Shown in pieces: positions 12,454-49,995 of a stretch of DNA of 64,000 nt. Source of the DNA: an uncultured Dehalococcoidales bacterium (lineage in GTDB: Bacteria > Chloroflexota > Dehalococcoidia > Dehalococcoidales > UBA5627); NCBI GenBank assembly GCA_964399425.1, contig CAYNQR010000005.1, forward strand, positions 5,883-69,882, read 5' to 3'. Below the pieces are notes generated by a model. The model searched no databases and was not told the DNA's origin. It was given only the letters and a program-made list of their open reading frames with translations. Made by a program: the position numbers and the translations under genes. Position 1 is the first letter of the stretch. The number at the start of each line of letters is the position of its first letter.

Positions 12454-12538
12454 GGGGGAGTGTCGGAACTGGCAGACGAGCAAGACTTAGGATCTTGTGC
12501 CGCAAGGCGTGGGGGTTCAAATCCCCCCTTCCCCACCA
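12454..12538 (+). tRNA. tRNA-Leu (anticodon TAG), CCA encoded
   Basis: Hand-folded cloverleaf. Acceptor GGGGGAG/CTTCCCC (one G-U pair), anticodon stem CAAGA/TCTTG with loop CTTAGGA, long variable arm TGCCGCAAGGCGT, T arm GGGGG-TTCAAAT-CCCCC, then A-CCA. Confidence 0.85.
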
Positions 12539-23656: not shown

Positions 23657-24355
23657 CTAACATTCAACAACCCCCCCTATCACAACACTGCAGCTTGCAA
23701 CTTTATCATCGTGATGTGGTTTGAATTTAAATTGATATGTTCTGATAGATTGGGGATCAATTCCCTCTATCAAAGCTACATTAGTACCGATTATTTCTTT
23801 TCTATAATCGTAAAATGTAGCTACAATTGCCGTATCTGTCTTGATATCGCTTATATTTTTAACAGATCCGGTTACTTCCTCTTCTCCGAACTCGTTAGTT
23901 TTCGTGAAGTTTCTTCTGAATTGAACCCTTTCAATGTCCGCCGTAATTACCCGTAATACTTTAATTGCGTAACTTTTTACCATATCGTGTAAACTTGCAT
24001 TTGAAGCACGTATAACAACACCACGGCTTACACCCGGTTTTAACTCAACTTCTATATGTTCAACTTTATCCAGAATGTTGCCTTCCTCGTCATAAAATGT
24101 AGCCTCAAGTAATACAGTGGCAATTGTTGAATCCGTAATATTTCTTATAGCAGTATCAATACTAGGTGGTTTCCCCGAATCTTTCGCTAACGGAGAGAAT
24201 TCAATAAGACTGTGTTTTAGAATAATAACCTGATCAGAATCAGTGATACACGGAACATTAGTTTCCATTCCAACAATCCCACCGGCATCCCCCGGTTTTT
24301 CTTCCAACTCGCTCTTATTTACATTTAGCAGCTTTTTATCTTCTTTTGTGGACAA
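23657..24355 (-). CDS. hypothetical protein with two tandem FxLYD-like beta-sandwich repeats
   Basis: Two internal repeats: IRNITDSTIATVLLEATFYDEEGNIL... and VKNISDIKTDTAIVATFYDYRKEIIG... No signal peptide or TM. Confidence 0.55.
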   Translation of the reverse strand: MSTKEDKKLLNVNKSELEEKPGDAGGIVGMETNVPCITDSDQVIILKHSLIEFSPLAKDSGKPPSIDTAIRNITDSTIATVLLEATFYDEEGNILDKVEHIEVELKPGVSRGVVIRASNASLHDMVKSYAIKVLRVITADIERVQFRRNFTKTNEFGEEEVTGSVKNISDIKTDTAIVATFYDYRKEIIGTNVALIEGIDPQSIRTYQFKFKPHHDDKVASCSVVIGGVVEC

Positions 24356-24457
24356 TTAAATTACCTCCTGTTTATTTTTAATATTGCCTGGTAAAAGTTG
24401 GCCGTTCCGAACAAATGTTAATTGATGACTGAAACGGTTTTCGGTTTTTGCTACTTT

Positions 24458-25096
24458 TTATCCTTGCCTTCCCGATTTTCGAACTTCTCTGGGCTGACTT
24501 TTACCCAGGGTCATATTTACGATCCAGCGCCAGTGCTGGATAACATGTATTATAATTATTGCCAGCATTAATATAGCTACCCAGGCATGAATGTCCAGCC
24601 ACTCGTTCCTCTGCAACCCCCAGAAAGTGCGGCCGATTCCGGATACCATATTATTGTAGTCCAACATCCCCCTCGGTAAAACAAGCCAGATAACACAGCC
24701 TGACAACACCTGAAAAGCAGTCATGATGAACAATACAAAGTTAGTAATATAGCGTTCCAGTATTGCTTTTTGACGTGTTGCAAAGTAGTCTTTAACCTTT
24801 ATAGCAGTCTCAACAATCCACCGCCAGTTAGTTGCCATATGCAAGAAAACAATAAATATAGCCGCAACTGATAACCATGAGTGAATATCAACCCACATAT
24901 ATCGTGGTAATTGAAATATCCTCAAGTAGTTACCTGCCTGTCCTAAACCCAATTGTAGACAATGATAACCTCCATGTTCGCCAACACCCCTTGGTATAAC
25001 AAACCAAAGTATATAACTTGATATGATGACAGCTATAAATATGCATATCAGAAGCAAGACAATTGCATAATTACCATAATTTCTATACTTCACCAT
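24458..25096 (-). CDS. DUF4405-like integral membrane protein (internally duplicated, conserved His pairs)
   Basis: Two homologous halves, each with (V/L)(I/L)PRG, W(V/L)DIH(S/A)W and H..(T/Q)(N/H)WRWIV. Four or more TM segments. The start lies 3 nt after the stop of the upstream radical SAM gene. Confidence 0.65.
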   Translation of the reverse strand: MVKYRNYGNYAIVLLLICIFIAVIISSYILWFVIPRGVGEHGGYHCLQLGLGQAGNYLRIFQLPRYMWVDIHSWLSVAAIFIVFLHMATNWRWIVETAIKVKDYFATRQKAILERYITNFVLFIMTAFQVLSGCVIWLVLPRGMLDYNNMVSGIGRTFWGLQRNEWLDIHAWVAILMLAIIIIHVIQHWRWIVNMTLGKSQPREVRKSGRQG

Positions 25097-25099
25097 TCA

Positions 25100-26788
25100 T
25101 CAACCGAATGCCAGCTTCTGTCTTATGTTTTTATAATATCCATATTCATCAAAACATTCTTCAGAAGATTGCATTAGAGATTCAATGGCTGTGATCAGAG
25201 ACGACAATCTGGCATTCCTTTCAGTTTCATCAGCTATATCCATGATATTATCCACTTCATCAGCAGCTATCCTTTCAAGCTTGGTTTGAATCCGGTCAGC
25301 GATTGCCAGGCTATCATGATAATATATCCTGTATTTCTCTGATTCATTGATAGAATAATGCAAAGATTCAAATATAAGCTCTATCAGCCCCTTTTTATCA
25401 AGCAAATCCGTTTCATGGTTGAGCCACTGATGCCATGATGGTTTGGACAAGGCATTTATATACTCCTCAAGATCCCTGAAGAGAAGTTTATAACCATGCT
25501 TTTCAGGTTGATCAAAAGCCAAGGATCCGGGGTCTATAATTATCGGGCCGACAATTGGAGTAGGGACATAGTGCTCAATATACTTGAAACTCTTTTTTTG
25601 AATAGCAACATGGTCAAGCATACAAAGCTCATCCCAGAGTTCCCATGTTTTTTTAATAGTAGTTGAGTCTTCACCAGCCAACCCTACTGAAAAGAAAACT
25701 GTTACCGGAATATGGTATTTATGACAAAGTTTGACTGTATCCAGCAGTTCTTCGGTTGTATAATTTCTTCCTTGCCTTTTTCGTACAGAACAAGAACCTG
25801 AATCCGGACAGATATATAGAAGCACCTTTCGGCCAATAGCCGCTACTTCTTTGATAAAGCTCTCGCCGGCGGGTGCAAGGAGATCAATTGACAATTGAAC
25901 ATCCTCTGGTATTTCCCGGTGAAGTATGGCCATTAATTCCCTCCAGTAACTTTCACCGCCCATGCGCGGGTCTTGGTAAAGCCCAATAAATTTAATGCCC
26001 TGTTGACGGAGTTGCCGTATGTCATCAGCAATTTTAACAGGGCTTCTAAAAGAAGGCCTGAGCATCCCCATGTATTTTTTGTAACTGTAGGACGATGCTC
26101 CACAGGTAGTACAGTTATAAATACAACCTCGACAGACAACCAGACTTCCATGCGGCTCCTTATCCTCAGTAAATATGGAGGTTTTAGGTTCTAATAAATC
26201 GAAACGGGTGAAGTTAAACTCATCGAGATCGCAAGATGTTTCCATAAGAGGAGTTACCTTTATTTCTCCACTCTGCAAACGATAAGTTAGATTAGGAGTA
26301 TTTCCAATCCTGTTGTTTCTTTTTAAATCTTTAATGAAATGCAGTAGCGGTTTTTCCGCTTCTCCTCTGATCACTGCATCCACAAAGTTATATTTAGCTA
26401 TTATTTCCTGGTGGAAATAGGTAGCCGTAAGCCCTCCTAATATAATCAGTGAATCAGGATGCAACTCTTTACATAGTCTCGCAACTTCAATAGCACCCTG
26501 AGCATGGTGATGCCAATGCAGATCAATACCAAATATCTTGGCCGAGAGATTTTTCAGATGTTTTTTGACGTCAAATTCGGCATCGGCAGTCATCCGGTCG
26601 GCCAGATTATCGATTATGACCTTGTAACCAAAAGAATCGAGATAATTAGCAATGCTAATCATACCTATCGGAACTTTAACAAACTGGATACGTTCCACTG
26701 TAGAACCGAGAGGACCCGGAAACAGAGGTTTTTTGCGAAAATCAAAGATTGCCGGAGGATGAATTAGTATAATATCGTAATCTGTCAT
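25100..26788 (-). CDS. B12-binding-domain radical SAM protein (class B type), paralogue 2
   Basis: N-terminal Rossmann-like YDIILIHPPA...PIGMISIANYL, a radical SAM motif C-IYN-C-TT-C with an extra upstream Cys, and a long C-terminal domain. Aligns over most of its length with the ORF at 26930..28489. Confidence 0.75.
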   Translation of the reverse strand: MTDYDIILIHPPAIFDFRKKPLFPGPLGSTVERIQFVKVPIGMISIANYLDSFGYKVIIDNLADRMTADAEFDVKKHLKNLSAKIFGIDLHWHHHAQGAIEVARLCKELHPDSLIILGGLTATYFHQEIIAKYNFVDAVIRGEAEKPLLHFIKDLKRNNRIGNTPNLTYRLQSGEIKVTPLMETSCDLDEFNFTRFDLLEPKTSIFTEDKEPHGSLVVCRGCIYNCTTCGASSYSYKKYMGMLRPSFRSPVKIADDIRQLRQQGIKFIGLYQDPRMGGESYWRELMAILHREIPEDVQLSIDLLAPAGESFIKEVAAIGRKVLLYICPDSGSCSVRKRQGRNYTTEELLDTVKLCHKYHIPVTVFFSVGLAGEDSTTIKKTWELWDELCMLDHVAIQKKSFKYIEHYVPTPIVGPIIIDPGSLAFDQPEKHGYKLLFRDLEEYINALSKPSWHQWLNHETDLLDKKGLIELIFESLHYSINESEKYRIYYHDSLAIADRIQTKLERIAADEVDNIMDIADETERNARLSSLITAIESLMQSSEECFDEYGYYKNIRQKLAFG

Positions 26789-26929
26789 GGTCGGGTTTCA
26801 GTCTCTCTTCACATTTAAATTTATTAAGATGAAATTGCTGTATCAGTCATATACAGCTTCATTCTATGCCTGTAATAAGTGAGTATTTATCATGTGCAGA
26901 ATGATGAAGATGGAGAAACCTTAATTTTA

Positions 26930-28489
26930 TCACCTTTTATCAGGATCAACCTCACTCATTACACGTTTAACCACATCTATTGCTTCCCTGTTGCCCTTTA
27001 TGTACCGGTTGAGAGCATCATCAACTTCGGCTCTGGTGTATATACCATATTTACCCCTCAGATTAATAGAAAATTCTATTGAGTCGATAAATAGCTCGGC
27101 ATTCGAATATTTGTCTAAAAAACGCGTTTCATACGATATCCATTGAGGCCACACCAATTGCGACATGCCATGGACATAGTCTTCAAGGTTTTTAAATATC
27201 AAACGATATCCGTGTTTATCTGGAAAATCAAATGAGGGTGAACCCGGGTCAAGCAGTATCATTGGCCCGAAAGCATAACTAAAAGGCGCTTTATTATCAC
27301 TCCTGGAATTTGTTAGGCAAATAAGCTCCCAGAATTTCCAGGTTTTTTTAATAGTATCAGGGGTATCATTTGCCAGTGAAATCATTGTATGAATTCCTAA
27401 AGGAATATCATATTTCTTGCACAGCTTCGCAAAGTTTAAGATCTCATCATTTGTATAATCACGCCCATGGATTTTTCTTATGCTGTCTACTCCTGACTCA
27501 GGCGAGATGGTAATAACGATTGGTAAACCGCTTTTGGATAGTTTTTTCAAAAAATCTTCGCCTGCAGGGCGAAAAACTTCAATTGTTATTTCTTCCGGCT
27601 TAACTTTCAGGTTTTTTAAAGCAGTAATAAGCTTGCTTACATATTCATTGCCTCCCATATTGGGGTCTTGCGCAAGAAATACCATTCCGACTCCTTGACT
27701 GACAAGTTTTTCTATATCTTCAGCTATTTTAGCCGGACTTCGAAAAGCAGGTTTGTGCCTGCCCAGGTATTTCTTATAGCTGTAGGCTGACCCACCACAT
27801 GAGACGCAATTATGCAAACACCCACGGCAAACAGGTATAGTCCAATGAGGCGCCCAACCCGGTCCGAAGATGGCTCCTTTAGGTTCGATCAAATCAAAAC
27901 GTGTATATTCGAATTCGTCTAAATCTTTGACCGGTTCCATCAAAGGATTAATATTTGTTTTACCTGTAGTATGGCGAAAAGTAAGATTAGGGACATCTTC
28001 CAGGGTTTGATTGCCTTCGAGTGTTTTCATCAATTTTAAAAAAGGTTTTTCAGCTTCTCCGCGAATCACAATATCTACAAACTCACTTTTATGTATAATT
28101 TCCTCGTGGAAAACGGTAGCAGTCAATCCTCCCATAATAACAATGGCTTCCGGATGCAACTTCTTACATAGCCGCGCCAACTCAATAGCTCCCTGGCAAT
28201 GCACACACCAATTAAGACCAATGGCAAATATTTTGGCTGAGAGCCTGCTAATGTGTGCTTCAACATCAAAATCCAAGTCCTTTATCATCCGCTCGCCTAT
28301 ATTGTCGACAATAACTCTGTATCCGTTTTTGTCAAGATAATCGGCAATACTGAGCATACCAATCGGTGGGATTATAAATTGTTCGGTGCTTTCACATACC
28401 GTATGACCTATCGGACCGGGAAAAATCGGCTTCTTACGGAAATCATAAATTGCCGGCGGGTGTATTAATATAACATCATAATTATTCAT
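26930..28489 (-). CDS. B12-binding-domain radical SAM protein (class B type), paralogue 1
   Basis: YDVILIHPPA...PIGMLSIADYL and a radical SAM motif C-LHN-C-VS-C. Same architecture as the neighbouring paralogue. Confidence 0.75.
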   Translation of the reverse strand: MNNYDVILIHPPAIYDFRKKPIFPGPIGHTVCESTEQFIIPPIGMLSIADYLDKNGYRVIVDNIGERMIKDLDFDVEAHISRLSAKIFAIGLNWCVHCQGAIELARLCKKLHPEAIVIMGGLTATVFHEEIIHKSEFVDIVIRGEAEKPFLKLMKTLEGNQTLEDVPNLTFRHTTGKTNINPLMEPVKDLDEFEYTRFDLIEPKGAIFGPGWAPHWTIPVCRGCLHNCVSCGGSAYSYKKYLGRHKPAFRSPAKIAEDIEKLVSQGVGMVFLAQDPNMGGNEYVSKLITALKNLKVKPEEITIEVFRPAGEDFLKKLSKSGLPIVITISPESGVDSIRKIHGRDYTNDEILNFAKLCKKYDIPLGIHTMISLANDTPDTIKKTWKFWELICLTNSRSDNKAPFSYAFGPMILLDPGSPSFDFPDKHGYRLIFKNLEDYVHGMSQLVWPQWISYETRFLDKYSNAELFIDSIEFSINLRGKYGIYTRAEVDDALNRYIKGNREAIDVVKRVMSEVDPDKR

Positions 28490-28620
28490 AATTTTATTAC
28501 TCAGCTTTAATAGATACTTAAATAATTTATATAATAATATTAATACCAGCCTTAAGCAACACGAATAAGCTGAATTCAGCCAAATTATGGATTTGTACGC
28601 CTGTTCACTTCAAGAGTTTC

Positions 28621-28662
28621 AATGAGCCTCCGTCACCATTAGAACGGTGACGGAGGCTCATT
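28621..28662 (-). terminator. 17-bp perfect GC-rich hairpin downstream of the Mo-enzyme operon (no U-tract)
   Basis: AATGAGCCTCCGTCACC (28621-28637) pairs with GGTGACGGAGGCTCATT (28646-28662). It lies 18 nt past the stop of the 28680..29276 gene. No clear T-run follows on either strand. Confidence 0.4.
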
Positions 28663-28679
28663 TAGACAATTTCGTTTCT

Positions 28680-29276
28680 TTAGCGATCCTTGCCCACAAT
28701 CAAATTGCGAACTAAAGCAAGAACCAGAAGCAAAGCCCCAGCTGCACAAGCCAACCAGTATCCTATTAAAATATCCGATTGGCCACCGCTGGCCATTCCG
28801 CCTCCCAGATCAAGATAGAAGAAGCCCCGGAAAGGAGTATCAAAAAGTGCTGCCGTTTTTGTCGATATCATATATACAGCTGCCAGAGCAACGACAATAT
28901 ATGAAAAGCCTACAATTCCTATAATTAAATTAGGTACTCCGATTCTAAGCTTTCCTATTGTAAACCCTTTACTTTTAATAAACAGTCCAACTAGAATTGC
29001 CGCAACAGCTATTCCAAAATATACCCACATCACTGAAGTAAACCAAGCCGGCATATTCTGGGCTTCAACCTGGTTCGTAAAAATACCTATGGCTGCCGGA
29101 TCGTACCAAAGTCCATAGGGATAGACCTCAGCCACTACTTTCCTGAGCTCATAAATCTCGGTAAACCACCAGGGTTGAAGAAAACTGTACACCATTAAGC
29201 CCCCGGCCAGCAAAACCAGTACACGAAATATCCAGGATCTTACACCTCCTCCCAGGGAAAACCAATTACCTATCAT
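28680..29276 (-). CDS. integral membrane protein, putative anchor subunit of the Mo enzyme (no His residues)
   Basis: About 5 hydrophobic segments. No histidine in 198 aa, so heme b ligation is unlikely. It follows the FeS subunit gene after a 27-nt gap on the same strand. Confidence 0.55.
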   Translation of the reverse strand: MIGNWFSLGGGVRSWIFRVLVLLAGGLMVYSFLQPWWFTEIYELRKVVAEVYPYGLWYDPAAIGIFTNQVEAQNMPAWFTSVMWVYFGIAVAAILVGLFIKSKGFTIGKLRIGVPNLIIGIVGFSYIVVALAAVYMISTKTAALFDTPFRGFFYLDLGGGMASGGQSDILIGYWLACAAGALLLVLALVRNLIVGKDR

Positions 29277-29303
29277 ATATCACTCCTTTTCCAGAAAACA
29301 TAA

Positions 29304-30113
29304 CTAAGATAATGCTATCTCCCCGAGCCCGATATCCTTTTCAACCGTGCTTACTGACATCGTCTTGGTTTTGCCGTCTTTGCTGATTGTCAATGTGAAT
29401 TCAGCAGCCGGTAGATCATGGAACCAGAAATCACCGAAGTTATCGGTAGTGGCATTATAAGTGCTGCCTCCACCGGTAAGAGTGCAATTGGCCCCTATGA
29501 CAACTTCTTTTGCTCCGGGATCATAGACCAATCCGGCAACGAATCTTTTAGGTAAGCCCATGTAGTACACACGGGTATTGGGGGTGTCGCCGAAATCAGG
29601 CTTTAACCTTTCTGCGCTGGAAATAAGCCCACTGAGTTCAGACTGCTCACCAAATTTAATATTTTCGTGCGGACAGAAATCAGCACACCTCGGCTCTTTC
29701 CATTTATTATCCAGCAGATGTGCGCAGCCGGTGCATTTCTGCGCCAGGTGAAGAGCTGCGTTGTAGTAAATACTACCATAGGGACAGGTATTCAAACAGT
29801 TCTGGCATCCGGTGCATTTTGCCGGATCTATTATGACCAAGCCGTCACTTCGCTCATATATGGCACCATCTACTGGGCAAGCTGCTTTACAAGGAGCATT
29901 TTCGCAATGCTGGCAGGGCACAAACACATGGGATATCCTGACTTGAGGGATTTGCCCCCTCTCATAATAATTCAGTTTACCCCAAAACTGTCCTGTGTCC
30001 GGCTGCGGTTTAGCATAGGGCGACCAGTCATTGCCGCAATGCTCATCTTTGCAGGATATTTGGCAACCATAGCAACCACTACAGTGTGCGACATCTATAA
30101 CAAAAGCTTTCAT
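29304..30113 (-). CDS. 4Fe-4S ferredoxin-type beta subunit with C-terminal Ig/carboxypeptidase-regulatory-like domain
   Basis: Cys groups CSGCYGCQISC, CQHCENAPCKAACP, CTGCQNCLNTCP and CTGC...CADFCP. The C-terminal beta-rich domain (VVIGANCTLTGGGSTYNATTDNFGDFWFHDLPAAEFTLTISKDG) has the architecture known for the pyrogallol transhydroxylase small subunit. Confidence 0.75.
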   Translation of the reverse strand: MKAFVIDVAHCSGCYGCQISCKDEHCGNDWSPYAKPQPDTGQFWGKLNYYERGQIPQVRISHVFVPCQHCENAPCKAACPVDGAIYERSDGLVIIDPAKCTGCQNCLNTCPYGSIYYNAALHLAQKCTGCAHLLDNKWKEPRCADFCPHENIKFGEQSELSGLISSAERLKPDFGDTPNTRVYYMGLPKRFVAGLVYDPGAKEVVIGANCTLTGGGSTYNATTDNFGDFWFHDLPAAEFTLTISKDGKTKTMSVSTVEKDIGLGEIALS

Positions 30114-30117
30114 TTAA

Positions 30118-33072
30118 CTACTTACCTCCTTCAAGCCAGGCTTCCACAGTAAGACCGGCACCAGAATCATAACTCCTAGAGAACTCTTCGGGATATTTGC
30201 GTCGCATTTCCTCATATTCGTTTCCGCTCAGTTTTTCGACCGCAACCAAAAAACCGCTTGAGACCATACCGGTGCAATTCTTGGATAATCCGTTCTCCGG
30301 ACAAATAACGTTATTATCTCCTCCACGGTTTACCCATTTATGTTCTCTTTCCGCAAAATCATCATCATCGAATCCCAACATATCCAATCTTGCGCCATGA
30401 TCCTGATACACGGAACCTGGAATTATCCTCTCGGTCACATGTGCAGCGCCCCAGGTCGTTCCTCTTTCGTTGTGCATCTTGCAGATGTCCCCTGCCTGTA
30501 TTCCTCTTGCAGCAGCATCCGATGGATGTAGCCAGATCGGTTCATATAAATACCCGTCAGGACCTTTAACTTTGCAGGTCGGTATTTCTCTGAACCAGGT
30601 CACATCATCATACTGGTTGTGTACACGCCATCTGGGATGGTTAGATACTATTACCAATGGATACTTCCCGGCTCTTTCACTGACCTTGTAGTTCTCGTTA
30701 TGCCACCAACCTTCTTCAGGGGGACCACCCACAACATGATGCGGGAAGGGAGCTCTTTCACGATCATCCGGGAAGTGCTCAGCAAGCCTGGCTGAATAGA
30801 ACTCCAGCTTGCCGGAAGGTGTTTGCAGTGGATTCTTGCCGGGATCTTCATAGAACGGGCGCATCATGCGTGCTCTGGCAGGCCAGTCCTGGTTAATAGG
30901 AGCAGGTACATATTTCTTCTGCTTCAGATTATTAAAGCTGATATAATCACCGGCTCCAGACCTTTCAAAGCCGAACTCGAGCCATTCATCTACTGTTTTG
31001 CCTCCGGTAACGGCTTCTACCGAACCGGCATATCTTCCGCCATGTTCCTCCAGCTTCTTGGCAATCTCGATAGCTGCCTCATAATCACTCTTTGATTCAC
31101 CTATTGGTTCACAGCATTTATCCCACATAACTAACCCGGGTATTTCCGCACCTGCAGTAAGAATATCCGGTGTTTCTGCGGCAGTAGTAATCGGTAAAAG
31201 AATGTCAGCACAGGTTGCTTCATTCTCCATCCAGATTGCTTGTATGGCATAGCATTCGATCTTAGGATCTCTGATGGCATGCAGGAACTTGTAGCCATCA
31301 TTCCAACAAACACACATGCAGGCATAGTCTTGATAAATCATGTGGAATTGTCCGCCACCCTGCTCCGCAGGCCAGGGATACTCATATTTTACAAATTGTT
31401 CTGCAGTTGGACGTGCACGGGATGTAGAGCCCCACTGTTCGGTCTTCCCTTCCAGTATGGCTTTATGGATTAGCATCTTAGAAAAAAGCTGGAACGGCTT
31501 GTCTGCCATACCGTATCCGCCGCCTCTTTGTGCAGCCCCGGGAGAGAAACCTGGTCTTGCCGGAGGTCCTCCTGGAGTATCCATTTGTTGCCGGCCCGGT
31601 GCTCCCAGTCCCTGCATTCCCATAACAACACACATCCACCTTGACCATTCATGGGTATACGGTCCCCTGATAGCGGGGCCACCATTCCCAAGCGCCCAGC
31701 TGGTTCTCTTGGAAGCCCATTCCCTCGCCAATGCCTTAATCGTCCATTCCGATATTCCACACCATTCAGAAGCCCAGGCCGGACTCTTTACGACTCCGTC
31801 TGTTTCTCCCATTACGTATGGCTTGATATAGTCATCAAAACCTATTGAATGAGAGGCAATATAATCCTTATCGTATGAATCTTCTGTTATCCAGGTATGA
31901 ATGATGGCCATTGCCAGTGTCTCATCCTGGCAAGACATAATAGGAATCCATTTATCCGGATGTGCAGCATTCTGATAGTTCAAATCCGGTGCTATATGTA
32001 CGAATTTGATTCCAATATCCTGAAGCCACCGGCAATACTTGGTCGAAAAGTTTCCATTGGACTGCGATGTAGTTAACCAGTCTCCACCGGTTATTACCAG
32101 CATCTCGCAGTGCTCCGCTATTTCGATTTCTTTGTTTGAGTTGGGTTGGATTTTACCGTCCCCGGCATCGGAACCCCAGACATGTTTTGCACCCCAGTAG
32201 TGGCCTTCCCAGCTATCTGCATTTCTCTGTGAGATGGTATAACCTATCCTGTCCATGAACGGCGTGTGCATACCGCCGCCCCAGTTCTTGTGAATAGTTC
32301 CCATCTCCCGGTGAGCCGAATCTGATTTATTCAGTATTGCCATATCGCCATATTTTTCCCAGATTCTTACCATCTCGCCGGCAATTATATCTGTGGCTTC
32401 ATCCCAGGAAATCCTTTTGTACTTACTTATGCCGCGATTCTGAGGATTGATTTTTGCAGAGTCACCACCGGGTTCCCAGTCTACCCGTTTCATCGGATAG
32501 CGAACCCTGTTGGGAGAATAGATGCGTTTCTTGTAACCGAGTTGAAAGTAACTCTGCAAGGTTTTTTTGGGACACTCCAGTGTTTTGCCATGTGCTTCAT
32601 ACTTCCACTGGCTCACAGCCAGATCGGCTTCGGAATATTGTTCGGTATAGTGATATGGTCTGATCCTGACAATTTTACCGTTTTTACTGTCTACTGCAGT
32701 TATATATCGGTGATTCCCGGCAAGCGGTAATACATTGGTAGTAACCGGTTCCTGCCATGGCTCGACTCCACCACTGCCTGGCTGTGTCACTGTTTTAGTT
32801 TCGGTTACTGTAGCTCCACTGCCACCAACCGTCGTAGTCTCGGTAATGGTAACGGCTCCACTGCCGCCAACCGTAGTTGTAACCGTCTTTTCAACCGTCT
32901 TGGTAGTCGTAACAGTCTTAGTTTCGCCGCCGCTACAACTGGAAAGCAATCCTGCACCGACAGCTCCGCCGACAACTACTGTACCCGCACCGACAAGGAA
33001 ATCACGTCTGGATACGTCGCCAGATTGCTTTCCCTCTTCCGTTAAAGTTAATTTCTCTTTTTCTTTTTTCAA
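30118..33072 (-). CDS. molybdopterin oxidoreductase (DMSO reductase family), Tat-lipoprotein, pyrogallol transhydroxylase/resorcinol hydroxylase-like large subunit
   Basis: Twin-arginine SRRDFLVGAG followed by lipobox LLSSC, then a Thr-rich linker. No N-terminal CxxCxxxC FS0 motif. Blocks such as YPMKRVDWEPGG, RISWDEATDII, NADSWEGHYWG and TWITEDSYDKDYI recall transhydroxylase-type large subunits. The likely start is TTG 33072 (SD AGGAGA); the tracked ORF extends to 33114. Confidence 0.75.
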   Translation of the reverse strand: MKKEKEKLTLTEEGKQSGDVSRRDFLVGAGTVVVGGAVGAGLLSSCSGGETKTVTTTKTVEKTVTTTVGGSGAVTITETTTVGGSGATVTETKTVTQPGSGGVEPWQEPVTTNVLPLAGNHRYITAVDSKNGKIVRIRPYHYTEQYSEADLAVSQWKYEAHGKTLECPKKTLQSYFQLGYKKRIYSPNRVRYPMKRVDWEPGGDSAKINPQNRGISKYKRISWDEATDIIAGEMVRIWEKYGDMAILNKSDSAHREMGTIHKNWGGGMHTPFMDRIGYTISQRNADSWEGHYWGAKHVWGSDAGDGKIQPNSNKEIEIAEHCEMLVITGGDWLTTSQSNGNFSTKYCRWLQDIGIKFVHIAPDLNYQNAAHPDKWIPIMSCQDETLAMAIIHTWITEDSYDKDYIASHSIGFDDYIKPYVMGETDGVVKSPAWASEWCGISEWTIKALAREWASKRTSWALGNGGPAIRGPYTHEWSRWMCVVMGMQGLGAPGRQQMDTPGGPPARPGFSPGAAQRGGGYGMADKPFQLFSKMLIHKAILEGKTEQWGSTSRARPTAEQFVKYEYPWPAEQGGGQFHMIYQDYACMCVCWNDGYKFLHAIRDPKIECYAIQAIWMENEATCADILLPITTAAETPDILTAGAEIPGLVMWDKCCEPIGESKSDYEAAIEIAKKLEEHGGRYAGSVEAVTGGKTVDEWLEFGFERSGAGDYISFNNLKQKKYVPAPINQDWPARARMMRPFYEDPGKNPLQTPSGKLEFYSARLAEHFPDDRERAPFPHHVVGGPPEEGWWHNENYKVSERAGKYPLVIVSNHPRWRVHNQYDDVTWFREIPTCKVKGPDGYLYEPIWLHPSDAAARGIQAGDICKMHNERGTTWGAAHVTERIIPGSVYQDHGARLDMLGFDDDDFAEREHKWVNRGGDNNVICPENGLSKNCTGMVSSGFLVAVEKLSGNEYEEMRRKYPEEFSRSYDSGAGLTVEAWLEGGK

Positions 33073-33189
33073 TTTTTTATTTCTCCTTTCATAGATTCTA
33101 ATTAAATAACACAAGTTGTTTAATAGGCATCCCCTCCTTTTTGACTGCTGACATTGATATAAATATAATTTAACGATTAACCTCAGAAT

Positions 33190-33576
33190 TTAGTCATTAT
33201 TCGATTGGCTTTCCCATTTACTTCGTCTTATAATTGCCCTTAATCTTGCTGCAAATATATTTTTATTGAAAGGTTTTATAATAAAACTATTTGCGCCGGA
33301 ATCCAGAGCTCTTTCGAGTAACTGGATATCTCTGTCATGGGAAACAAATATTATTGGAATGTCGTTATCCTCCCTAATTTGCTTAACCAATTCACAACCT
33401 GACATATCAGATAATTTTAAGCCTATAATTATTGCTTCATGCACTTCATTACTTCTTATATCATTAAGACATTTTTTACCTGAAGAATAAATTTCTACTT
33501 TACAATCGTATTGAAATATTTCAATAGCCTGTTTTATATCATCGATAGCATTGGCGTCGGTATCCGCAATTATCAT
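33190..33576 (-). CDS. single-domain response regulator (CheY-like receiver)
   Basis: Receiver hallmarks: LSDMSG (phospho-Asp), FVSHD and IIKPF. No output domain. Confidence 0.75.
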   Translation of the reverse strand: MIIADTDANAIDDIKQAIEIFQYDCKVEIYSSGKKCLNDIRSNEVHEAIIIGLKLSDMSGCELVKQIREDNDIPIIFVSHDRDIQLLERALDSGANSFIIKPFNKNIFAARLRAIIRRSKWESQSNND

Positions 33577-33905
33577 AACAATCTATCCTTAAATTCATTT
33601 GCGTAATCTATCTATTTTTATATATAAACCTGATATATTCATCGTAATATAAATAAGATTTTTAAAAGCCGCAGATGTCTCTTTCAGGAAGGTTGAGAAG
33701 ACTAATTAATTGCTTGCTATACTATAATTCAATATAACAAATGTATATTAATAAACCTGTAAATATAGCCAGTTATTAATAACAATATAGAAATATATAT
33801 TAATATAATTGAAATAATTTGCAGGGAAATTTGAGATTCAAGCTGAATGGGAGAGGAATTGTTACAATGACTTATTTTATATTCTGAAATTAGTATTTTA
33901 AATTA

Positions 33906-34592
33906 TCAACTTTGTCCATTGGTATTAAAGTAATAACCGATACCGGATTTAGTAATAATCACGTTTTTGTTACCTGTGCGAGATTCTATTTTATTACGAA
34001 TACGTTGAATGTGCACCCTAAGTGCATTTTCCTCCCCGGGGTAATAGTTGCCCCAAATGTTGTTATATAGATTATTATAGGCGACCACATTCCCCTTGTT
34101 AATTAAAAGTAGATAAAGAATTTGGGATTCAATATTTGTCAGATATATTATTTTCTCTTCATATATTAATTGTCTCTTGGATAAACTGAAATTATATAGC
34201 CCGATTTTTAGATATTCCTGTTCATACAGGTTTGTTTTCTTCATAACATTGTTAACACGGGCGAGAAACTCAAGATGGCGGAATGGTTTGGAAATATAAT
34301 CATTTGCTCCTAATTCAAGTGCTTTAACAATATCACGTTCTTCTCCTCTAACTGTCAATACAATAACTGGTACATTAGAAAATAAACGCAACCTTCTTAA
34401 GACTTCAAATCCATCGATATCAGGTAATCCCAAATCAAGAATAACGAGGTCCGGATTTTCTTTTTCAGCAGTATCTAGCCCCTCTTCACCAAATTTAGAT
34501 GATAATAATAATATGTCTGGTCGGCTGACCTTAAATATCAAAGTAACAATCTCAATGGATCCGAGATCATCTTCAATTATTAAGACTTTCAT
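33906..34592 (-). CDS. OmpR/PhoB-family response regulator (pair 1)
   Basis: REC (IIEDD, ILDLGLPDIDG, SKPF) plus a winged-helix C-terminus (ALRVHIQRIRNKIE). Adjacent to the kinase gene, with a 1-nt gap. Confidence 0.85.
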   Translation of the reverse strand: MKVLIIEDDLGSIEIVTLIFKVSRPDILLLSSKFGEEGLDTAEKENPDLVILDLGLPDIDGFEVLRRLRLFSNVPVIVLTVRGEERDIVKALELGANDYISKPFRHLEFLARVNNVMKKTNLYEQEYLKIGLYNFSLSKRQLIYEEKIIYLTNIESQILYLLLINKGNVVAYNNLYNNIWGNYYPGEENALRVHIQRIRNKIESRTGNKNVIITKSGIGYYFNTNGQS

Positions 34593-34593
34593 T

Positions 34594-37500
34594 TTACTGC
34601 TCCTGTGTTCTATCTAAAACGTCCGGACGCTTTATAGGTATGTAAAAACTAAAAACACTGCCCTTGCCCTTTTGGCTTTTAAACCATATTCTACCTTTAT
34701 GAAGTTCTATTGTCTGTTTAACTAGTGATAGACCGATTCCCAATCCACTGAGTCTGCTTCTTTCACTGTTCAATCGACTATATGGTTTAAATATATACTT
34801 TTTCTCATCATCGTCTATGCCACAACCGGTATCAATTACACTAATAATAATATTTTGAGTTTTTTTAGCTTTAATTACAACAGTTCCATTTCTGGGAGTA
34901 TATTTAAAAGCATTATTTAAAAGATTTAATATCGCTTGTTTTATACGTTCTTCGTCACATTGAATAACAGGCAAATCCGGGTCAATTTCCAGTAACAAAT
35001 TTAACTCGTTTTTCTCAGCCTCGATTTTGGTATTTTTATATATTTCCAATAACAAACCTTGAATATCTACGGAACTATATTCCAATTGTAGAATGCCGAC
35101 TTCCATGCGAGCAATGTCCAGAAGTATATCAATCTTATCTGAGAGATTTATAGCGCTGGTGTTAATACTTCTAGCAAAACTTAATAATGGCTCCTCTCGG
35201 ATACTTGAAACCAGATAATCGCTTGCAGCCACCAAAGGGTTGAGAGGGGTTTTCAATTCATGAACTAACGCTCTGGTATATTTTATTCGGTTATCTATCT
35301 CATCTGCCAGTTTCTGTTCTGTTTTTTCAAGTAAGTGAATCTCTTTTTGTAATTCTAATGTTTTATTATCTAGTTCGGCAGTACGTTGGGAGACCTGCAT
35401 TTCGAGTATTTGTGCATGCCTAAATAAAGACCTTGTTCTGAACTTAATAAACGCTGCTACTGTTAGTAATGCTACAGCGATTAAGAAAAGTATAAACCAC
35501 CACTCCTGCCAAAACGGGGGTGTAATTATTATGATGAGCGATGCTCCTTCTTCATTCCAAATACCGTCCTTGTTACTAGCTATAACTCTAAAAATATATT
35601 CTCCACCAGGTATATTAGTATATTTAGCGATACGCTGATTTGCCCCGCTATATTGCCAATCCGAATCAAAACCATCCAATTTATAAGCATACATATTGTT
35701 ATACTGAGAGGAATAGTCCAAAGCGATAAAATTAATTATAAAAGAGTTATCAGAATAAGCTAAAGTAACCTCTTTTACTTCTTCGATAGGTTTGTCCAAT
35801 GACACCGGATTACCGTCAACAAGGTGAAAATCCTTTATATAGACTGGGGGGATATAAGTATCGATTTCAATTTTATCGGGGTAAAATGAAAATATTCCAT
35901 TAGTAGTACCGATAAAAATAGCTCCCTCTTCATTTTTGGCTATGGAGTTACGATAATTGATATACCCTCTAAGTCCATGGTCAAATCTATAGCTATTAAT
36001 GACATTAGAATCTGGAGAAATGCTATTAATTGTATTTTTTGTAGTTACCCATATTTTACCAGAATTATCTTCAATGATTCCTAAAATATGATTATCCGAA
36101 AGACCCTCTCTAATTGTATATGATGTGAAATTCCCCTCTTCTCTATTATATTTAAATAATCCGTCAATAGTACCTATCCATAAATTGTTGCTGCTATCTT
36201 CATATATGCTTTCTACCTGGCAACCAATAAACTCCACAAAACTTTGTGGTTCTTTAAAATAATGAATAAATTCTCCGTTTTCTGTATCATATCTATCCAA
36301 TCCATTGTTGGTACCCAACCACAGTTCATTATTACTGGTACCATATATTATATTAATTATATCGCCGATTATACTTGTTGAATCATCAGGGTTATGATTA
36401 TATCGAGTGAAAATATTGTTTTCATAGTCAAAATTGCAAAGCCCATCGTTTGTACCTATCCATAACAGATCAGTAACAGGGCATTGATACATTGTTCGAA
36501 CAGTACCATTTGAAATACTGTTGGGATTAAGTGGTTCATAATTATATATTGAATAATCAAATGTCTCCATGTCTATTCTTAGTAAACCTAATTGGCTTGT
36601 TCCTACCCACAAAAACCCTCTTTTGTCCATGTAAATACAATAAACTATAGCTGCGTCGATTTCTCCTGTTAACGATTTAAAGTCAATTAACTCTTCTATA
36701 GCTCTTCCATTACAGGCGAAATTCATAATGCTATTTAATCCGCCTAATAGCAATGTATTCTCAAAATTGTATATTGATCTAATCTCGTTATTTTTGATAG
36801 GGATATCATAGCGATAGTTGAAATGCTGCTTATCTGGATCGATGAAATACACCCCTTCCCTTGTCCCAATCCATAGTATGCCTTGTTCGTCTTCATAAAT
36901 AGCAAGTATACTGTTATTACCGATACTGCTGAGATTATCAGAGTCATAAAAATAACTGGTAAATACTCCGGTTTCCCGATCAAACGAGTTAAATCCATTT
37001 TCTGTACCAATCCATAATTTCCCGAATCTGTCTTCATATATCGCAGTAATATAGTTATCACTGATACTACCGGGATCATCGGGGTCATGAAAATAACCGG
37101 TAAATACTCCGGTTTCCCGATCAAACGAGTTAAGTCCATTTTCTGTTCCAAGCCACAATATTCCCCGACTGTCTACATAAACGCTTCGAATCCTATTATT
37201 ACTAATACTATCGGGATTATCCGGATTAAAAAAATAACTGGTAAATACTCCGGTTTCCCGATCAAACGAGTTAAGTCCATTTGCAGTTCCCAACCATAAT
37301 ATTCCCTGCCTATCTTCACAAATGCTTCTAATTCTATTATTACTAATACTATCGGGGTTATCCGGATCAAAATAATATCCGGTAAAAATACCGGTTTCTC
37401 GGTCAAACAAGTTTAGTCCATTTGAAGTACCAACCCATAGATTTTGATAGCTATCCTGATAAATAGACCTTATATGGTTGTCACTTACAGTTGTCAAATC

Positions 37501-37941
37501 GAAATACTCATTGAATAATCCCTTAAAGCCTTTAGATTTATCATCATAATAAAATAAACCATTCATGGTTCCAATCCAAAGAGTCTTATAACTATCCATG
37601 TAAATAGACCAAACATTGTTAAAAACATGATTATCCAAAGTACTTATTTCTTCAACATCACTACTATCATATTTAAATAAATAGCCATTTCCTCCGAACC
37701 ACAAATAACCGTAATGATCTTGTTCTATAGAATAAACAGGATTATCTGATAATACTTTATCTTTATCAAGTTTACTGAATACAACATTATTCTCAGACAA
37801 TATGGAATTAGCTTCTAATGAAATAATAGGGAAAGCACATAATGAAGCTAATAAACAAAATAGTGAAAATATAAATACAATTGTCACTGATTTTATTTTT
37901 ATCTTTCTTGAATTAATATTCATCTGTATAACACAAGACAT
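34594..37941 (-). CDS. sensor histidine kinase with extracytoplasmic double beta-propeller (Reg_prop repeats) and Y_Y_Y domain (pair 1)
   Basis: N-terminal TM, many roughly 47-aa repeats (LW(I/L)GT.NGL..FD...G.F), a YYY-type domain (YAYKLDGFDSDWQY...GEYIFRVIASNKDG), a second TM, H-box VHELKTPL and HATPase G-boxes. Confidence 0.85.
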   Translation of the reverse strand: MSCVIQMNINSRKIKIKSVTIVFIFSLFCLLASLCAFPIISLEANSILSENNVVFSKLDKDKVLSDNPVYSIEQDHYGYLWFGGNGYLFKYDSSDVEEISTLDNHVFNNVWSIYMDSYKTLWIGTMNGLFYYDDKSKGFKGLFNEYFDLTTVSDNHIRSIYQDSYQNLWVGTSNGLNLFDRETGIFTGYYFDPDNPDSISNNRIRSICEDRQGILWLGTANGLNSFDRETGVFTSYFFNPDNPDSISNNRIRSVYVDSRGILWLGTENGLNSFDRETGVFTGYFHDPDDPGSISDNYITAIYEDRFGKLWIGTENGFNSFDRETGVFTSYFYDSDNLSSIGNNSILAIYEDEQGILWIGTREGVYFIDPDKQHFNYRYDIPIKNNEIRSIYNFENTLLLGGLNSIMNFACNGRAIEELIDFKSLTGEIDAAIVYCIYMDKRGFLWVGTSQLGLLRIDMETFDYSIYNYEPLNPNSISNGTVRTMYQCPVTDLLWIGTNDGLCNFDYENNIFTRYNHNPDDSTSIIGDIINIIYGTSNNELWLGTNNGLDRYDTENGEFIHYFKEPQSFVEFIGCQVESIYEDSSNNLWIGTIDGLFKYNREEGNFTSYTIREGLSDNHILGIIEDNSGKIWVTTKNTINSISPDSNVINSYRFDHGLRGYINYRNSIAKNEEGAIFIGTTNGIFSFYPDKIEIDTYIPPVYIKDFHLVDGNPVSLDKPIEEVKEVTLAYSDNSFIINFIALDYSSQYNNMYAYKLDGFDSDWQYSGANQRIAKYTNIPGGEYIFRVIASNKDGIWNEEGASLIIIITPPFWQEWWFILFLIAVALLTVAAFIKFRTRSLFRHAQILEMQVSQRTAELDNKTLELQKEIHLLEKTEQKLADEIDNRIKYTRALVHELKTPLNPLVAASDYLVSSIREEPLLSFARSINTSAINLSDKIDILLDIARMEVGILQLEYSSVDIQGLLLEIYKNTKIEAEKNELNLLLEIDPDLPVIQCDEERIKQAILNLLNNAFKYTPRNGTVVIKAKKTQNIIISVIDTGCGIDDDEKKYIFKPYSRLNSERSRLSGLGIGLSLVKQTIELHKGRIWFKSQKGKGSVFSFYIPIKRPDVLDRTQEQ
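36859..37422. repeat. four tandem 141-bp units (47-aa propeller blades) inside the kinase gene
   Basis: The 42-nt block GGTAAATACTCCGGTTTCCCGATCAAACGAGTTAAGTCCATT is identical at 37099-37140 and 37240-37281. A copy at 36958-36999 has one mismatch, and a diverged copy sits at 37381-37422. Spacing is exactly 141 nt. Confidence 0.85.
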
Positions 37942-38358: not shown

Positions 38359-39042
38359 TCATGACGGTATAGATAATATATATCCTTGAGAAACCATAGT
38401 AAAGATATATTTAGGATTGGCAGGGTCTTCTTCTATTTTATTGCGAAGTCGTTTCATATATACTCTTATGGCTTCTTCGGAACCGGGATATTCCCTACCC
38501 CACAGAGCTTGAGCAAGTCTGTAATAAGTTACAACGGAATTGGCATTATTCATTAATTCGGCAAAGATTACGCATTCACTTCTTGTAAGAGAAATGTGTT
38601 TTTCGTTATATAATAATTCATGTTTGTAGGCATTTAACTGAAATTTTCCCTTTGTAAGAGAGGCTTTTTCAGCTAATATATCCAGTTTGTGTGTATTAGC
38701 TTTTATTCTGGCAATCAATTCCATCTGTCTAAAGGGTTTTACGATATAATCATTTGCTCCCAATCCTAATCCGGTAACTACATCCGCTTCTTCGCCACGG
38801 ATTGTTAAAATAATTACCGGCACATTTGAATATTGTCGTATTTGTTTTAGCACATCGAATCCATTAATATCAGGTAATCCAAGGTCAAGGATAACAATAT
38901 CCGGAGAAACTTCGTCCACCAATTGAATTCCTTCTTCTCCTAAACGTGTGGGTATAAACTCCGCCTCAGGCCAACATAACTTGAAGGTCATGGCTAATGA
39001 TTCCAGAATACGTTTGTCGTCATCAACAACAAGTATTTTCAT
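38359..39042 (-). CDS. OmpR/PhoB-family response regulator (pair 2)
   Basis: Paralogue of 33906..34592 (VVDDD, ILDLGLPDING, VKPF, AIRVYMKRLRNKIE). Confidence 0.85.
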   Translation of the reverse strand: MKILVVDDDKRILESLAMTFKLCWPEAEFIPTRLGEEGIQLVDEVSPDIVILDLGLPDINGFDVLKQIRQYSNVPVIILTIRGEEADVVTGLGLGANDYIVKPFRQMELIARIKANTHKLDILAEKASLTKGKFQLNAYKHELLYNEKHISLTRSECVIFAELMNNANSVVTYYRLAQALWGREYPGSEEAIRVYMKRLRNKIEEDPANPKYIFTMVSQGYILSIPS

Positions 39043-39083
39043 TTTAATATCTCCTCCTGTTGACTACTGAGATATAAATGTTC

Positions 39084-44505: not shown

Positions 44506-44594
44506 AACCTCTTAAAAAATCTATAAATTTATAGGGTTGAAAACTGCTGGTGAGGGTCTGAAATTTCAGATTCTCACCAGTATATATCTTGTAG

Positions 44595-45242: not shown

Positions 45243-45477
45243 GCCAGAATTTAACGTTTTATGGTAATTTAGCCGCGTTTTCTAAGAAAAAATAGCTGAA
45301 TTTAAACCATATTTAATTTTAGTTATGAATAATGTTAGCAGAAAATATAATGGTTGTTAAGATATATTTGATCTCTAAGCTAGAGGACAACAGGCAAGTA
45401 TATCCACAATTTTGTTGATAAGTTATAAGCAAGTTAATTGAGTAAAATCGATTATAACAAAGGGTAAATAATTAGAT

Positions 45478-46485: not shown

Positions 46486-46503
46486 TATTTTGGAGGTTAC
46501 AGA

Positions 46504-47316: not shown

Positions 47317-47331
47317 TAATGGAGAGGGAAA

Positions 47332-47922: not shown

Positions 47923-47985
47923 GAGAGCAATAATCGACATGAAATAAACATGTCAAGAATTAAGAAATGTTTTATTGGAGGTTAA

Positions 47986-48897: not shown

Positions 48898-48913
48898 TGG
48901 AGGAATGAATAAC

Positions 48914-49930: not shown

Positions 49931-49964
49931 ACGACGCAGTATAATCAATCGTATATCAATAGAT

Positions 49965-49995
49965 AAAAAGGGAAATGCAAGATATTTCCCTTTTT
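49965..49995 (+). terminator. intrinsic terminator after the flavin/cytochrome operon
   Basis: AAAAAGGGAAAT...ATTTCCCTTTTT: a 7-bp GC core extended by an A/T run, located 35 nt after the stop. Confidence 0.7.

Follow-up and report, generated by a model that had tools for sequence, protein, structure and literature searches.

The described system closest to the one treated here is the pyrogallol-phloroglucinol transhydroxylase of Pelobacter acidigallici (AthL/BthL; PDB entry 4v4c), a molybdenum enzyme with an alpha subunit that lacks an Fe-S cluster and a beta subunit that carries a C-terminal beta-sandwich. AthL-like genes of sediment Chloroflexota have been interpreted as pyrogallol transhydroxylase and as evidence of plant-polymer fermentation, and no radical S-adenosylmethionine (SAM) enzyme is mentioned in these papers (PMC3971608, PMC4959651). 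Dadh, Cldh and further catechol dehydroxylases known from Eggerthella and Gordonibacter are members of the DMSO-reductase family that act on phenolic hydroxyls as alpha-beta(-gamma) complexes; they are respiratory reductases with many substrate-specific paralogues and dedicated regulators, and the excerpts of the paper describing them mention no radical SAM partner (PMC11574389). Here we describe a ten-gene unit on the minus strand (37941..23657) of a 64,000-nucleotide stretch of DNA, referred to below as the window, from an uncultured Dehalococcoidales bacterium (GenBank assembly GCA_964399425.1, contig CAYNQR010000005.1, positions 5,883 to 69,882). The unit encodes, in order, a sensor histidine kinase, two response regulators, the catalytic and Fe-S subunits of an AthL/BthL-like molybdenum enzyme (MoA and FeSB), a membrane protein (memG), two cobalamin-type radical SAM enzymes (rSAM-A and rSAM-B), a DUF4405 membrane protein and an FxLYD protein. 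Comparison of gene neighbourhoods ties radical SAM enzymes of this type to the molybdenum enzyme in bacteria and archaea, and we propose, with a probability of roughly 0.45, that they are dedicated maturases of the molybdenum subunit or its cofactor, acting in the cytoplasm before export.

MoA (30118..33114, minus strand; 998 residues) has the Pfam domains Molybdopterin, Molydop_binding and AhtL-like_1st; in the public annotation its start is placed 14 codons further in, which gives 984 residues (P0415). Its best PDB sequence match is the large subunit of pyrogallol hydroxytransferase (4v4c_A, E = 1.9e-101), and that of FeSB (29304..30113, minus strand; 269 residues, with Fer4_11 and a C-terminal CarboxypepD_reg beta-sandwich) is the small subunit (4v4c_B, E = 1.2e-50); both matches are full-length. 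An AlphaFold2 model of mature MoA (predicted local distance difference test score, pLDDT, 88) superposes on 4v4c_A with a template modelling score of 0.84. Identity to AthL/BthL is about 31-35%. In the alignment, His144 and Asp174-Ser175-Trp176 of the transhydroxylase, including the molybdenum ligand Ser175, are kept, but the substrate-binding residues Arg153 and Tyr404 are replaced by Gly and Ala; the position of Arg153 is occupied by Pro in MoA of Geobacter sp. AOG1. As judged from these comparisons, MoA/FeSB is of the pyrogallol transhydroxylase lineage, but constitutes a distinct subfamily with a different substrate pocket.

Unlike AthL, MoA begins with a twin-arginine translocation (Tat) signal (32935..33012, minus strand; SRRDFL at residues 35-40; NCBIfam TAT_signal_seq) that ends in a lipobox (L-S-S-C, Cys60); a linker of about 55 residues, rich in Thr, comes next. 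Because of this combination of twin-arginine motif, lipobox and linker, the enzyme is predicted to be lipid-anchored at the outer face of the membrane. The transhydroxylase also lacks a counterpart of memG (28680..29276, minus strand), a protein of 198 residues, polytopic by hydropathy, without histidine and without a Pfam or NCBIfam family, which is presumably the anchor of the exported enzyme. Most Chloroflexota loci that encode this 190-residue type of membrane protein share the architecture of Tat signal, lipobox and linker. The exported and anchored enzyme would probably add hydroxyl groups to phenolic compounds or remove them, under the control of a dedicated sensor. We infer this substrate class from the transhydroxylase lineage and from analogy to the catechol dehydroxylases, whose resemblance to the present system lies in architecture and ecology, with a comparable paralogue expansion and sensor linkage (PMC11574389, in excerpts). 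The direction of electron flow is likewise inferred: the enzyme would work as a respiratory reductase, as the gut catechol dehydroxylases do, or as a hydroxylase.

One genome per GTDB species was scanned for similar loci, which yielded 61 loci, 53 of them informative, and the open reading frames (ORFs) of these loci were searched with the proteins of the window. In 48 of the 53 informative loci the radical SAM gene adjoins the genes for MoA and FeSB and lies directly downstream of the molybdenum enzyme, so that the assignment of the radical SAM genes to the molybdenum enzyme upstream, suggested in an initial annotation of the window from its sequence, is supported. Bacterial Mo-linked loci belong to Anaerolineae, Dehalococcoidales, Geobacter sp. 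AOG1, Geomobilimonas luticola, SAR324, Desulfobacterales, Spirochaetota and Clostridiales, and archaeal ones to Nitrososphaeria, Conexivisphaerales and Bathyarchaeota. A metagenome-assembled genome (MAG) of Eubacteriales, reached from the MoA side, contains the same system. The accessory genes are more variable: a memG-type protein was found in 32 of the Mo-linked loci, FxLYD in 14, an FMN_bind protein in 10, a second radical SAM enzyme in 9 and DUF4405 in 7, all of these being lower bounds because many loci are incomplete. DUF4405 and FMN_bind never occur together among the 48. The conserved core is MoA, FeSB and a radical SAM enzyme; the two radical SAM genes with DUF4405 and FxLYD, which the initial annotation had treated as one system, are not a conserved unit. 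Three long contigs (L002, L003 and L004) repeat the arrangement of regulators, MoA, FeSB, 190-residue membrane protein and radical SAM enzyme. L002 has an FMN_bind gene between two radical SAM genes, L003 one radical SAM gene and FMN_bind, and L004 one radical SAM gene with DUF4405 and TatA.

The linkage persists where the enzyme is not exported. MoA has a Tat signal in most loci that encode the 190-residue membrane protein. It is signal-less in some Anaerolineales and in one locus each of Dehalococcoidales and Nitrososphaeria, as well as in Geobacter, SAR324 and Desulfobacterales. The radical SAM gene is kept in all loci with a signal-less MoA and no memG-type protein was found in them. Their neighbours are of other kinds. 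Geobacter has NrfD and Fe-S proteins together with an IclR regulator. In SAR324 they are NrfD, a Psr-like molybdenum enzyme, a tripartite ATP-independent periplasmic (TRAP) transporter, a short-chain dehydrogenase/reductase (SDR), a cupin and a sigma-54 regulator, and the archaeal locus has a NarJ-like chaperone besides cytochrome b. The presence of the radical SAM enzyme beside both Tat-exported and signal-less MoA implies that its role is independent of the final location of the enzyme. Linkage also holds through gene duplication, as the Dehalococcoidales MAG R103_7 has at least ten MoA-FeSB-rSAM loci (L009, L011, L013, L017, L023, L029, L037, L039, L042 and L047), each with its own radical SAM gene. 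This expansion recalls those of reductive dehalogenases or gut catechol dehydroxylases. Pairwise distances of the radical SAM enzymes correlate with those of MoA at r = 0.66-0.71, no less tightly than those of MoA do with its own Fe-S subunit (0.67-0.74).

A further link between the two enzymes is a C-terminal extension of MoA (residues ~966-998, EEMRRKYPEEFSRSYDSGAGLTVEAWLEGGK; 30121..30219, minus strand), recognized by alignment and regular expression. The transhydroxylase query was rebuilt from the printed alignment, and orthologues were retrieved at 62-96% identity to 4v4c_A. When 35 radical SAM-linked MoA sequences were aligned with 13 of these orthologues, 61 positions were conserved in the radical SAM-linked group only, and a tail of about 32 residues was present in 34 of the 35 versus none of the 13. 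Its consensus is (E)EW(R/K)xxYPxAFxRxYDPxxG(L/P)xFxxW(V/I)EGG. Of the 120 homologues closest to the window MoA, 110 matched a regular expression for the tail and about 118 have it as judged by eye, compared with 0 of 120 transhydroxylase homologues. The window MoA falls outside the transhydroxylase orthologue group, having both a Tat motif and the tail, either of which is found in 0 of the 120 transhydroxylase homologues. Nearly every MoA encoded directly 5' of a radical SAM gene has the tail; the second, transhydroxylase-like molybdenum enzyme copies of SAR324 are without it. Around the transhydroxylase orthologues, no radical SAM gene was found within 8 kb by gene calls and tblastn in three distinct loci; in these comparisons the true orthologues have neither the tail nor the radical SAM partner of the window system. 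Two homologues of the window MoA, P0481 and P0510, continue for about 100 residues after the tail with a 'EVQFLDDAGKVLY' motif that resembles FxLYD. A fusion of MoA with FxLYD was not used as evidence for a functional association, as this similarity is 8-10 bits and is undetected by NCBIfam.

The two radical SAM enzymes, rSAM-A (26930..28489, minus strand; 519 residues) and rSAM-B (25100..26788, minus strand; 562 residues), are 49% identical over their full length. Both match PF02310 (B12-binding) and PF04055 (Radical_SAM) above the gathering scores, and their CxxxCxxC motifs read C-LHN-C-VS-C and C-IYN-C-TT-C. A model of rSAM-A (AlphaFold; pLDDT 90) matches the folds of TsrM, OxsB, CysS, AprD4, MgmA and TokK, while a plain sequence search returned no solved relative. 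Both proteins have class B architecture, with an N-terminal B12-binding Rossmann domain followed by the radical SAM barrel, as the initial annotation had read from the sequence. Their C-terminal helices are charged rather than hydrophobic and both are cytoplasmic proteins. The residues W94-x2-H97-x-Q99-G100-A and G120-G121 of rSAM-A (about 28127-28210, minus strand) are invariant across the clade, and rSAM-B reads H-W-H-H-H-A-Q-G at the first site. The resemblance of this pattern to the DxHxxG...GG cobalamin motif is only suggestive; it could indicate His-on cobalamin binding, which is unusual among class B enzymes. AprD4 has the same fold, yet binds no cobalamin.

Among named families, rSAM-A and rSAM-B are closest to TIGR04190 (B12_SAM_Ta0216), at 374.9 and 376.4 bits respectively; the next best model is BchE at 76 bits, and there are weak NCBIfam matches to ApyD and rSAM_ocin_1. 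The class B assignment that the initial annotation had anticipated stands, and both scores lie below the 500-bit cut-off of TIGR04190. An exhaustive search of 1.84 billion cluster representatives delimited a compact clade, which comprises roughly 15 clusters with identities of 36-50%, followed by a drop to proteins of 30-36% identity in full-length alignment. Ten further members of the clade, bacterial and archaeal, Mo-linked or not, score 348-446 bits against TIGR04190, all below 500, while the ten next-nearest cluster representatives, whose named members are from Nitrososphaeria, Aigarchaeota and Bathyarchaeota, score 590-670 bits. Because of this difference in scores, the Mo-linked clade is placed by sequence as a sister of TIGR04190 and not within it. 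In a neighbour-joining tree the clade splits into two old paralogue groups: group A includes rSAM-A and an archaeal branch, and group B includes rSAM-B and the proteins of Geobacter, SAR324 and Desulfobacterales. Single loci may carry group A, group B or both. Close homologues of rSAM-A are plentiful in metagenomes, the named ones being from Anaerolineales, Chloroflexota and Dehalococcoidia.

The relationship to TIGR04190 raises the possibility that rSAM-A and rSAM-B modify membrane lipids or quinones, introducing rings, methyl groups or desaturations to adapt the membrane, and are co-regulated with a respiratory complex. TIGR04190 probably includes the glycerol dialkyl glycerol tetraether (GDGT) ring synthases GrsA and GrsB. 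An archaeal TIGR04190 gene (L074) lies directly upstream of a geranylgeranyl reductase gene, and distant relatives are fused to quinone methyltransferases of the UbiE type. However, neither of the two TIGR04190 members checked for context is Mo-linked, every clade member tested scores below the family cut-off, and a lipid-biosynthesis context as expected of GrsA/GrsB is not seen here, where the neighbour is a molybdenum enzyme and the hosts include Chloroflexota and Geobacter. The clade keeps this same partner in bacteria and archaea with very different lipids, and neither the charged C-terminal helices nor a one-to-one expansion with enzyme paralogues makes sense for a lipid-modifying enzyme. 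We consider a lipid substrate, which the initial annotation had entertained, to be improbable. The GDGT ring synthases are themselves B12-dependent radical SAM enzymes (PMC13459092), and GrsA homologues (E < 1e-30, at least 30% identity) were reported as 'noticeably missing' from Chloroflexota in a study of Black Sea MAGs (PMC11868695). The archaeal lipid enzymes Ted, Gmm and Cgm, also B12-dependent radical SAM proteins (bioRxiv 10.1101/2025.10.20.683597), were considered and set apart, as they are described as relatives of Gmm without a Mo link. Among the distant relatives (30-35% identity), P0175, P0211 and P0148 are fused to UbiE/COQ5-type methyltransferase or PGA_cap domains, a hint of quinone- or lipid-type functions in other parts of the superfamily. 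Another relative, P0153 (L072:117-2561; 33% identity), forms an in-frame fusion with a complete TatC domain. This fusion occurs on a single 3-kb contig and is possibly an assembly artefact; if real, it ties the wider family to Tat export.

Many class B enzymes are methyltransferases of peptides that are ribosomally synthesized and modified post-translationally (RiPPs), to which the weak ApyD and rSAM_ocin_1 matches also point, and a small precursor peptide encoded nearby could be the substrate. The 141-nt spacer between rSAM-A and rSAM-B contains a single ORF, a GTG-initiated one of 24 residues, but it is unconserved, in keeping with the initial annotation, which had seen nothing resembling a precursor peptide in the spacer. 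In other loci the radical SAM genes abut, overlap or flank the FMN_bind gene. No protease, transporter or recognition-element genes of a RiPP system were seen, and no conserved precursor-peptide gene lies beside the radical SAM genes. This makes a RiPP-type system the least probable of the explanations considered.

A precedent for cobalamin-type radical SAM enzymes with a large metalloenzyme as their target is given by Mmp10 and QCMT (MgmA), which methylate active-site Arg and Gln residues of methyl-coenzyme M reductase, according to excerpts of the papers describing them (PMC8828468, PMC13469106). Two different paralogous modifiers are dedicated to this one large metalloenzyme, as is proposed for the window, and MgmA, a protein methylase, is among the fold matches of rSAM-A. 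The relationship of Mmp10 and MgmA to the window proteins is at the level of the superfamily only, and modification of the molybdenum enzyme is a proposal here. Genes for Mmp10 and MgmA are often near those of their target. By analogy, rSAM-A and rSAM-B would be maturases specific to this subfamily of molybdenum enzymes, modifying MoA by C-methylation or by C-C or C-X cross-linking of residues, or possibly tailoring its cofactor. This modification would precede Tat export, comparable to the methylation of methyl-coenzyme M reductase, and the C-terminal tail of MoA would serve as a docking or target element for the radical SAM enzymes. The narrower claim that this transhydroxylase-like subfamily needs dedicated B12-type radical SAM maturases, which C-methylate or cross-link it before Tat export, is made more tentatively.

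The strongest competitor is that rSAM-A and rSAM-B are pathway partners whose cytoplasmic target is a small aromatic compound, either the substrate or the product of the molybdenum enzyme. Their chemistry could be C-methylation, ring or C-C chemistry, or a radical dehydration similar to that of AprD4, and for the exported form of the enzyme the memG-type protein would import the compound. Most characterized class B enzymes do act on small molecules, the folds of AprD4, OxsB, CysS and TokK are among the matches, and the sister family TIGR04190 occurs in a lipid context. Tight linkage and co-diversification fit such a role as well as they fit a maturase, and the neighbours in cytoplasmic-type loci (TRAP transporter, SDR, cupin, and IclR and sigma-54 regulators) look catabolic. 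The compartments argue the other way, since in the exported form the radical SAM enzyme and the active molybdenum enzyme are on different sides of the membrane and there is no recognizable conserved transporter. On general grounds, consumption of one SAM per turnover would be very costly in low-yield anaerobic catabolism or respiration. A role in the pathway also leaves unexplained the clade-specific tail on the molybdenum protein, and the position of the radical SAM genes behind a strong hairpin among chaperone-type genes speaks against it. We regard pathway partnership as possible but unlikely.

Dedicated maturation of MoA is our preferred explanation because it accommodates these same observations: the separate compartments, the absence of any conserved transporter, the expense of using SAM stoichiometrically, the tail that marks the radical SAM-linked clade, and the genes behind the hairpin. 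The one-to-one pairing through paralogue expansions and the precedent of Mmp10 and MgmA are further reasons for it, and we also count in its favour that no conserved small ORF was found near the radical SAM genes in the surveyed loci. Several points weigh against it. To our knowledge, no enzyme of the DMSO-reductase family is modified by a radical SAM enzyme. The nearest relatives of rSAM-A and rSAM-B, in TIGR04190 with its member beside geranylgeranyl reductase, and most characterized class B enzymes act on lipids or small molecules, and the 190-residue membrane protein could be an importer that feeds a cytoplasmic radical SAM step, which would suit pathway partnership just as well. Co-diversification of paralogues within one genome was not significant (r = 0.10 and 0.46 in MAG R103_7, a small sample of n = 5-6). 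Two Bathyarchaeota loci (L033 and L062) have the radical SAM gene and a MoA without the tail. The clearest exception to the linkage is L070 from Moorellaceae bacterium AZ2, where a tail-bearing, signal-less MoA-FeSB pair has no radical SAM gene within 8 kb and a gap of 1.2 kb without gene calls follows FeSB. Finally, the tail is predicted by AlphaFold to be ordered (pLDDT 83-92) and packed, unlike a flexible recognition peptide.

The gene that follows rSAM-B after 3 nt encodes DUF4405 (24458..25096, minus strand; 212 residues), which matches PF14358 in two stretches (76.9 bits, cut-off 26.7) and has four hydrophobic segments by hydropathy, corresponding to four predicted transmembrane helices. 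Nine homologues all retain His72, His86, His170 and His184, which form the pairs His72/His170 and His86/His184, each of helices 2 and 4 contributing two histidines 14 residues apart. Such a spacing on two helices typically marks a pair of stacked b haems, and the window protein is predicted to be a dihaem b cytochrome. The initial annotation had correctly described the 3-nt distance of this gene from rSAM-B, the two repeats and the four conserved histidines. Its suggestion of a haem b protein agrees with the invariant histidines and with the finding that a purified DUF4405 protein binds haem b (PMC11334425), a result that makes its description of the family as uncharacterized out of date. The family was described in the same study as a flavinylation-associated transmembrane electron carrier. 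The window protein shares with these cytochromes the Pfam family, four conserved histidines, predicted haem b, a presumed part in extracytosolic electron transfer and alternation with an FMN_bind lipoprotein; it differs in having a molybdenum enzyme as its partner and may differ in the number of transmembrane segments (six described versus four by hydropathy here; PMC11334425). The scanned ORFs of the window included no apbE gene.

On the basis of this arrangement, the initial annotation had proposed a radical SAM system that is autonomous and membrane-associated. In it, DUF4405 gives electrons to the radical SAM enzymes or takes electrons from them, and FxLYD is a fourth component. Net-oxidative radical SAM reactions do need an electron acceptor, as is generally known, and a radical SAM gene adjoins a DUF4405 gene also in L004, L020, L021 and L057. 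However, DUF4405 is present in only 7 of the 48 Mo-linked loci and the four genes are not inherited together. In other loci DUF4405 is replaced by the FMN_bind protein, which carries a lipoprotein signal and a GATTSS flavinylation-type motif and is therefore extracytoplasmic, unable to contact a cytoplasmic radical SAM enzyme. No DUF4405 gene was found among the ORFs of loci with a signal-less MoA, all of which keep the radical SAM gene, and b haems in general have potentials far above those at which a radical SAM cluster could be reduced. The gene-neighbourhood data thus largely refute a self-contained system with its own haem b electron entry, which we hold to be improbable. DUF4405 very probably carries electrons across the membrane for the exported molybdenum enzyme and not for rSAM-A and rSAM-B, and would link the redox pool of the cell with the Fe-S subunit. 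It appears to be one of several interchangeable electron modules of the molybdenum enzyme, since the FMN_bind lipoprotein, NrfD with Fe-S proteins, or cytochrome b substitutes for it elsewhere.

The last gene of the unit encodes FxLYD (23657..24355, minus strand; 232 residues, TTG start), which matches NF038353 in two stretches (40.2 bits, cut-off 23) and has neither a hydrophobic segment nor a signal peptide, consistent with the cytoplasmic double-repeat protein of the initial annotation, whose four genes were all found as ORFs on the minus strand as described. Homologues with two or three domains, without signal peptide or transmembrane segment, occur in 14 loci. FxLYD is a cytoplasmic accessory protein and possibly a chaperone. 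Genes of a maturation type recur beside the radical SAM genes of other loci, namely trigger factor in L002 and L071, a NarJ-like chaperone in L027 and TatA in L004. The trigger-factor genes follow the accessory genes directly in two unrelated loci (L002:14714-16021 and L071:15339-16625) and recall PceT, the chaperone of Tat-exported reductive dehalogenases. A conserved protein of ~405-411 residues without a Pfam family was also noted among the accessory genes of L003 (11598-12833) and L071 (11675-12892); it is absent from the window.

Operons of reductive dehalogenases (rdhA/B/C/T) offer a design analogy. They combine a Tat-exported cofactor enzyme at the outer face of the membrane with a small membrane anchor and a flavin mononucleotide (FMN)-binding accessory protein, PceC being such a protein according to excerpts of PMC5928378. 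The likeness extends to a chaperone of the trigger-factor type, to two-component regulators and to the many paralogues found in each Dehalococcoidia genome. The catalytic subunits are unrelated, however, and the dehalogenase operons have no radical SAM enzyme.

The regulatory module upstream of MoA starts with a sensor histidine kinase (34594..37941, minus strand; Pfam Reg_prop/Y_Y_Y beta-propeller, HisKA and HATPase_c), followed by an OmpR-type response regulator (33906..34592, minus strand; Response_reg and Trans_reg_C) and a single-domain receiver protein (33190..33576, minus strand; assigned by Pfam). The receiver gene lies directly upstream of MoA, and the same three genes precede the molybdenum enzyme in L002, L003 and L071. 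A second Y_Y_Y/Reg_prop sensor kinase (1085 residues) and OmpR-type regulator are located directly upstream of this first pair (38359-42341, minus strand). They face an FAD_binding_2 flavoprotein gene and may control that gene instead; in L003 a similar FAD_binding_2 gene comes after a Y_Y_Y kinase and regulator pair. The flavoprotein (593 residues) belongs to a second respiratory or cofactor island (42724-51223, plus strand). This island also encodes a cytochrome c3-like protein, proteins of cytochrome c biogenesis of the ResB/CcsA type, FAD synthetase, RibBA, NrfD and a 4Fe-4S protein.

Between memG and rSAM-A, the intercistronic spacer contains a perfect 19-bp hairpin without a U-tract (28621..28662, minus strand), which the initial annotation had seen. 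Its folding energy is -40.8 kcal/mol (z = -7.1), and the hairpin is unique in the window. The Rfam search of the hairpin and spacer gave no family match, and no riboswitch or known RNA. The hairpin splits the structural genes from the accessory genes and may set the ratio of transcripts or stabilize the upstream mRNA. A scan for sigma-70 promoters and terminators gave values near those of the shuffle controls and was uninformative. The sole Rfam matches within the window are tRNA genes at 12454-12535 (plus strand) and 52863-52936 (minus strand). At 17748-20432 (minus strand), a protein of 894 residues has ADP-forming acyl-CoA synthetase domains and, at its C-terminus, a GNAT acetyltransferase, an architecture similar to that of Pat-like protein acetyltransferases.

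We found no description of a radical SAM enzyme paired with a transhydroxylase-like molybdenum enzyme in literature searched for transhydroxylase, pyrogallol, molybdopterin or catechol dehydroxylase together with radical SAM or B12; papers naming both catechol dehydroxylase and radical SAM drew no link between them as a system. The coupling of class B radical SAM enzymes to tail-bearing, transhydroxylase-like molybdoenzymes is apparently widespread and undescribed. Most AthL-like genes of sediment Chloroflexota belong to a different subfamily from the transhydroxylase, with its own substrate pocket, often secreted, controlled by sensors and with an almost obligatory B12-type radical SAM partner. 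The combination of a tail-bearing MoA with this radical SAM clade is a clean genomic marker, and the clade gains a functional context apart from the archaeal lipid family, to which it might otherwise have been assigned. A partner that acts as a pathway enzyme would point to unknown radical chemistry on phenolics. If it is a maturase, as we favour, it would represent a new kind of maturation of a metalloenzyme and the first radical SAM-dependent post-translational modification of a molybdenum enzyme, and heterologous expression of the enzyme would be expected to need the partner. The subfamily, which is abundant in Chloroflexota of anoxic sediment and peat and occurs in Geobacter, SAR324 and TACK archaea, would then mark a previously unrecognized class of polyphenol-transforming respiratory enzymes.

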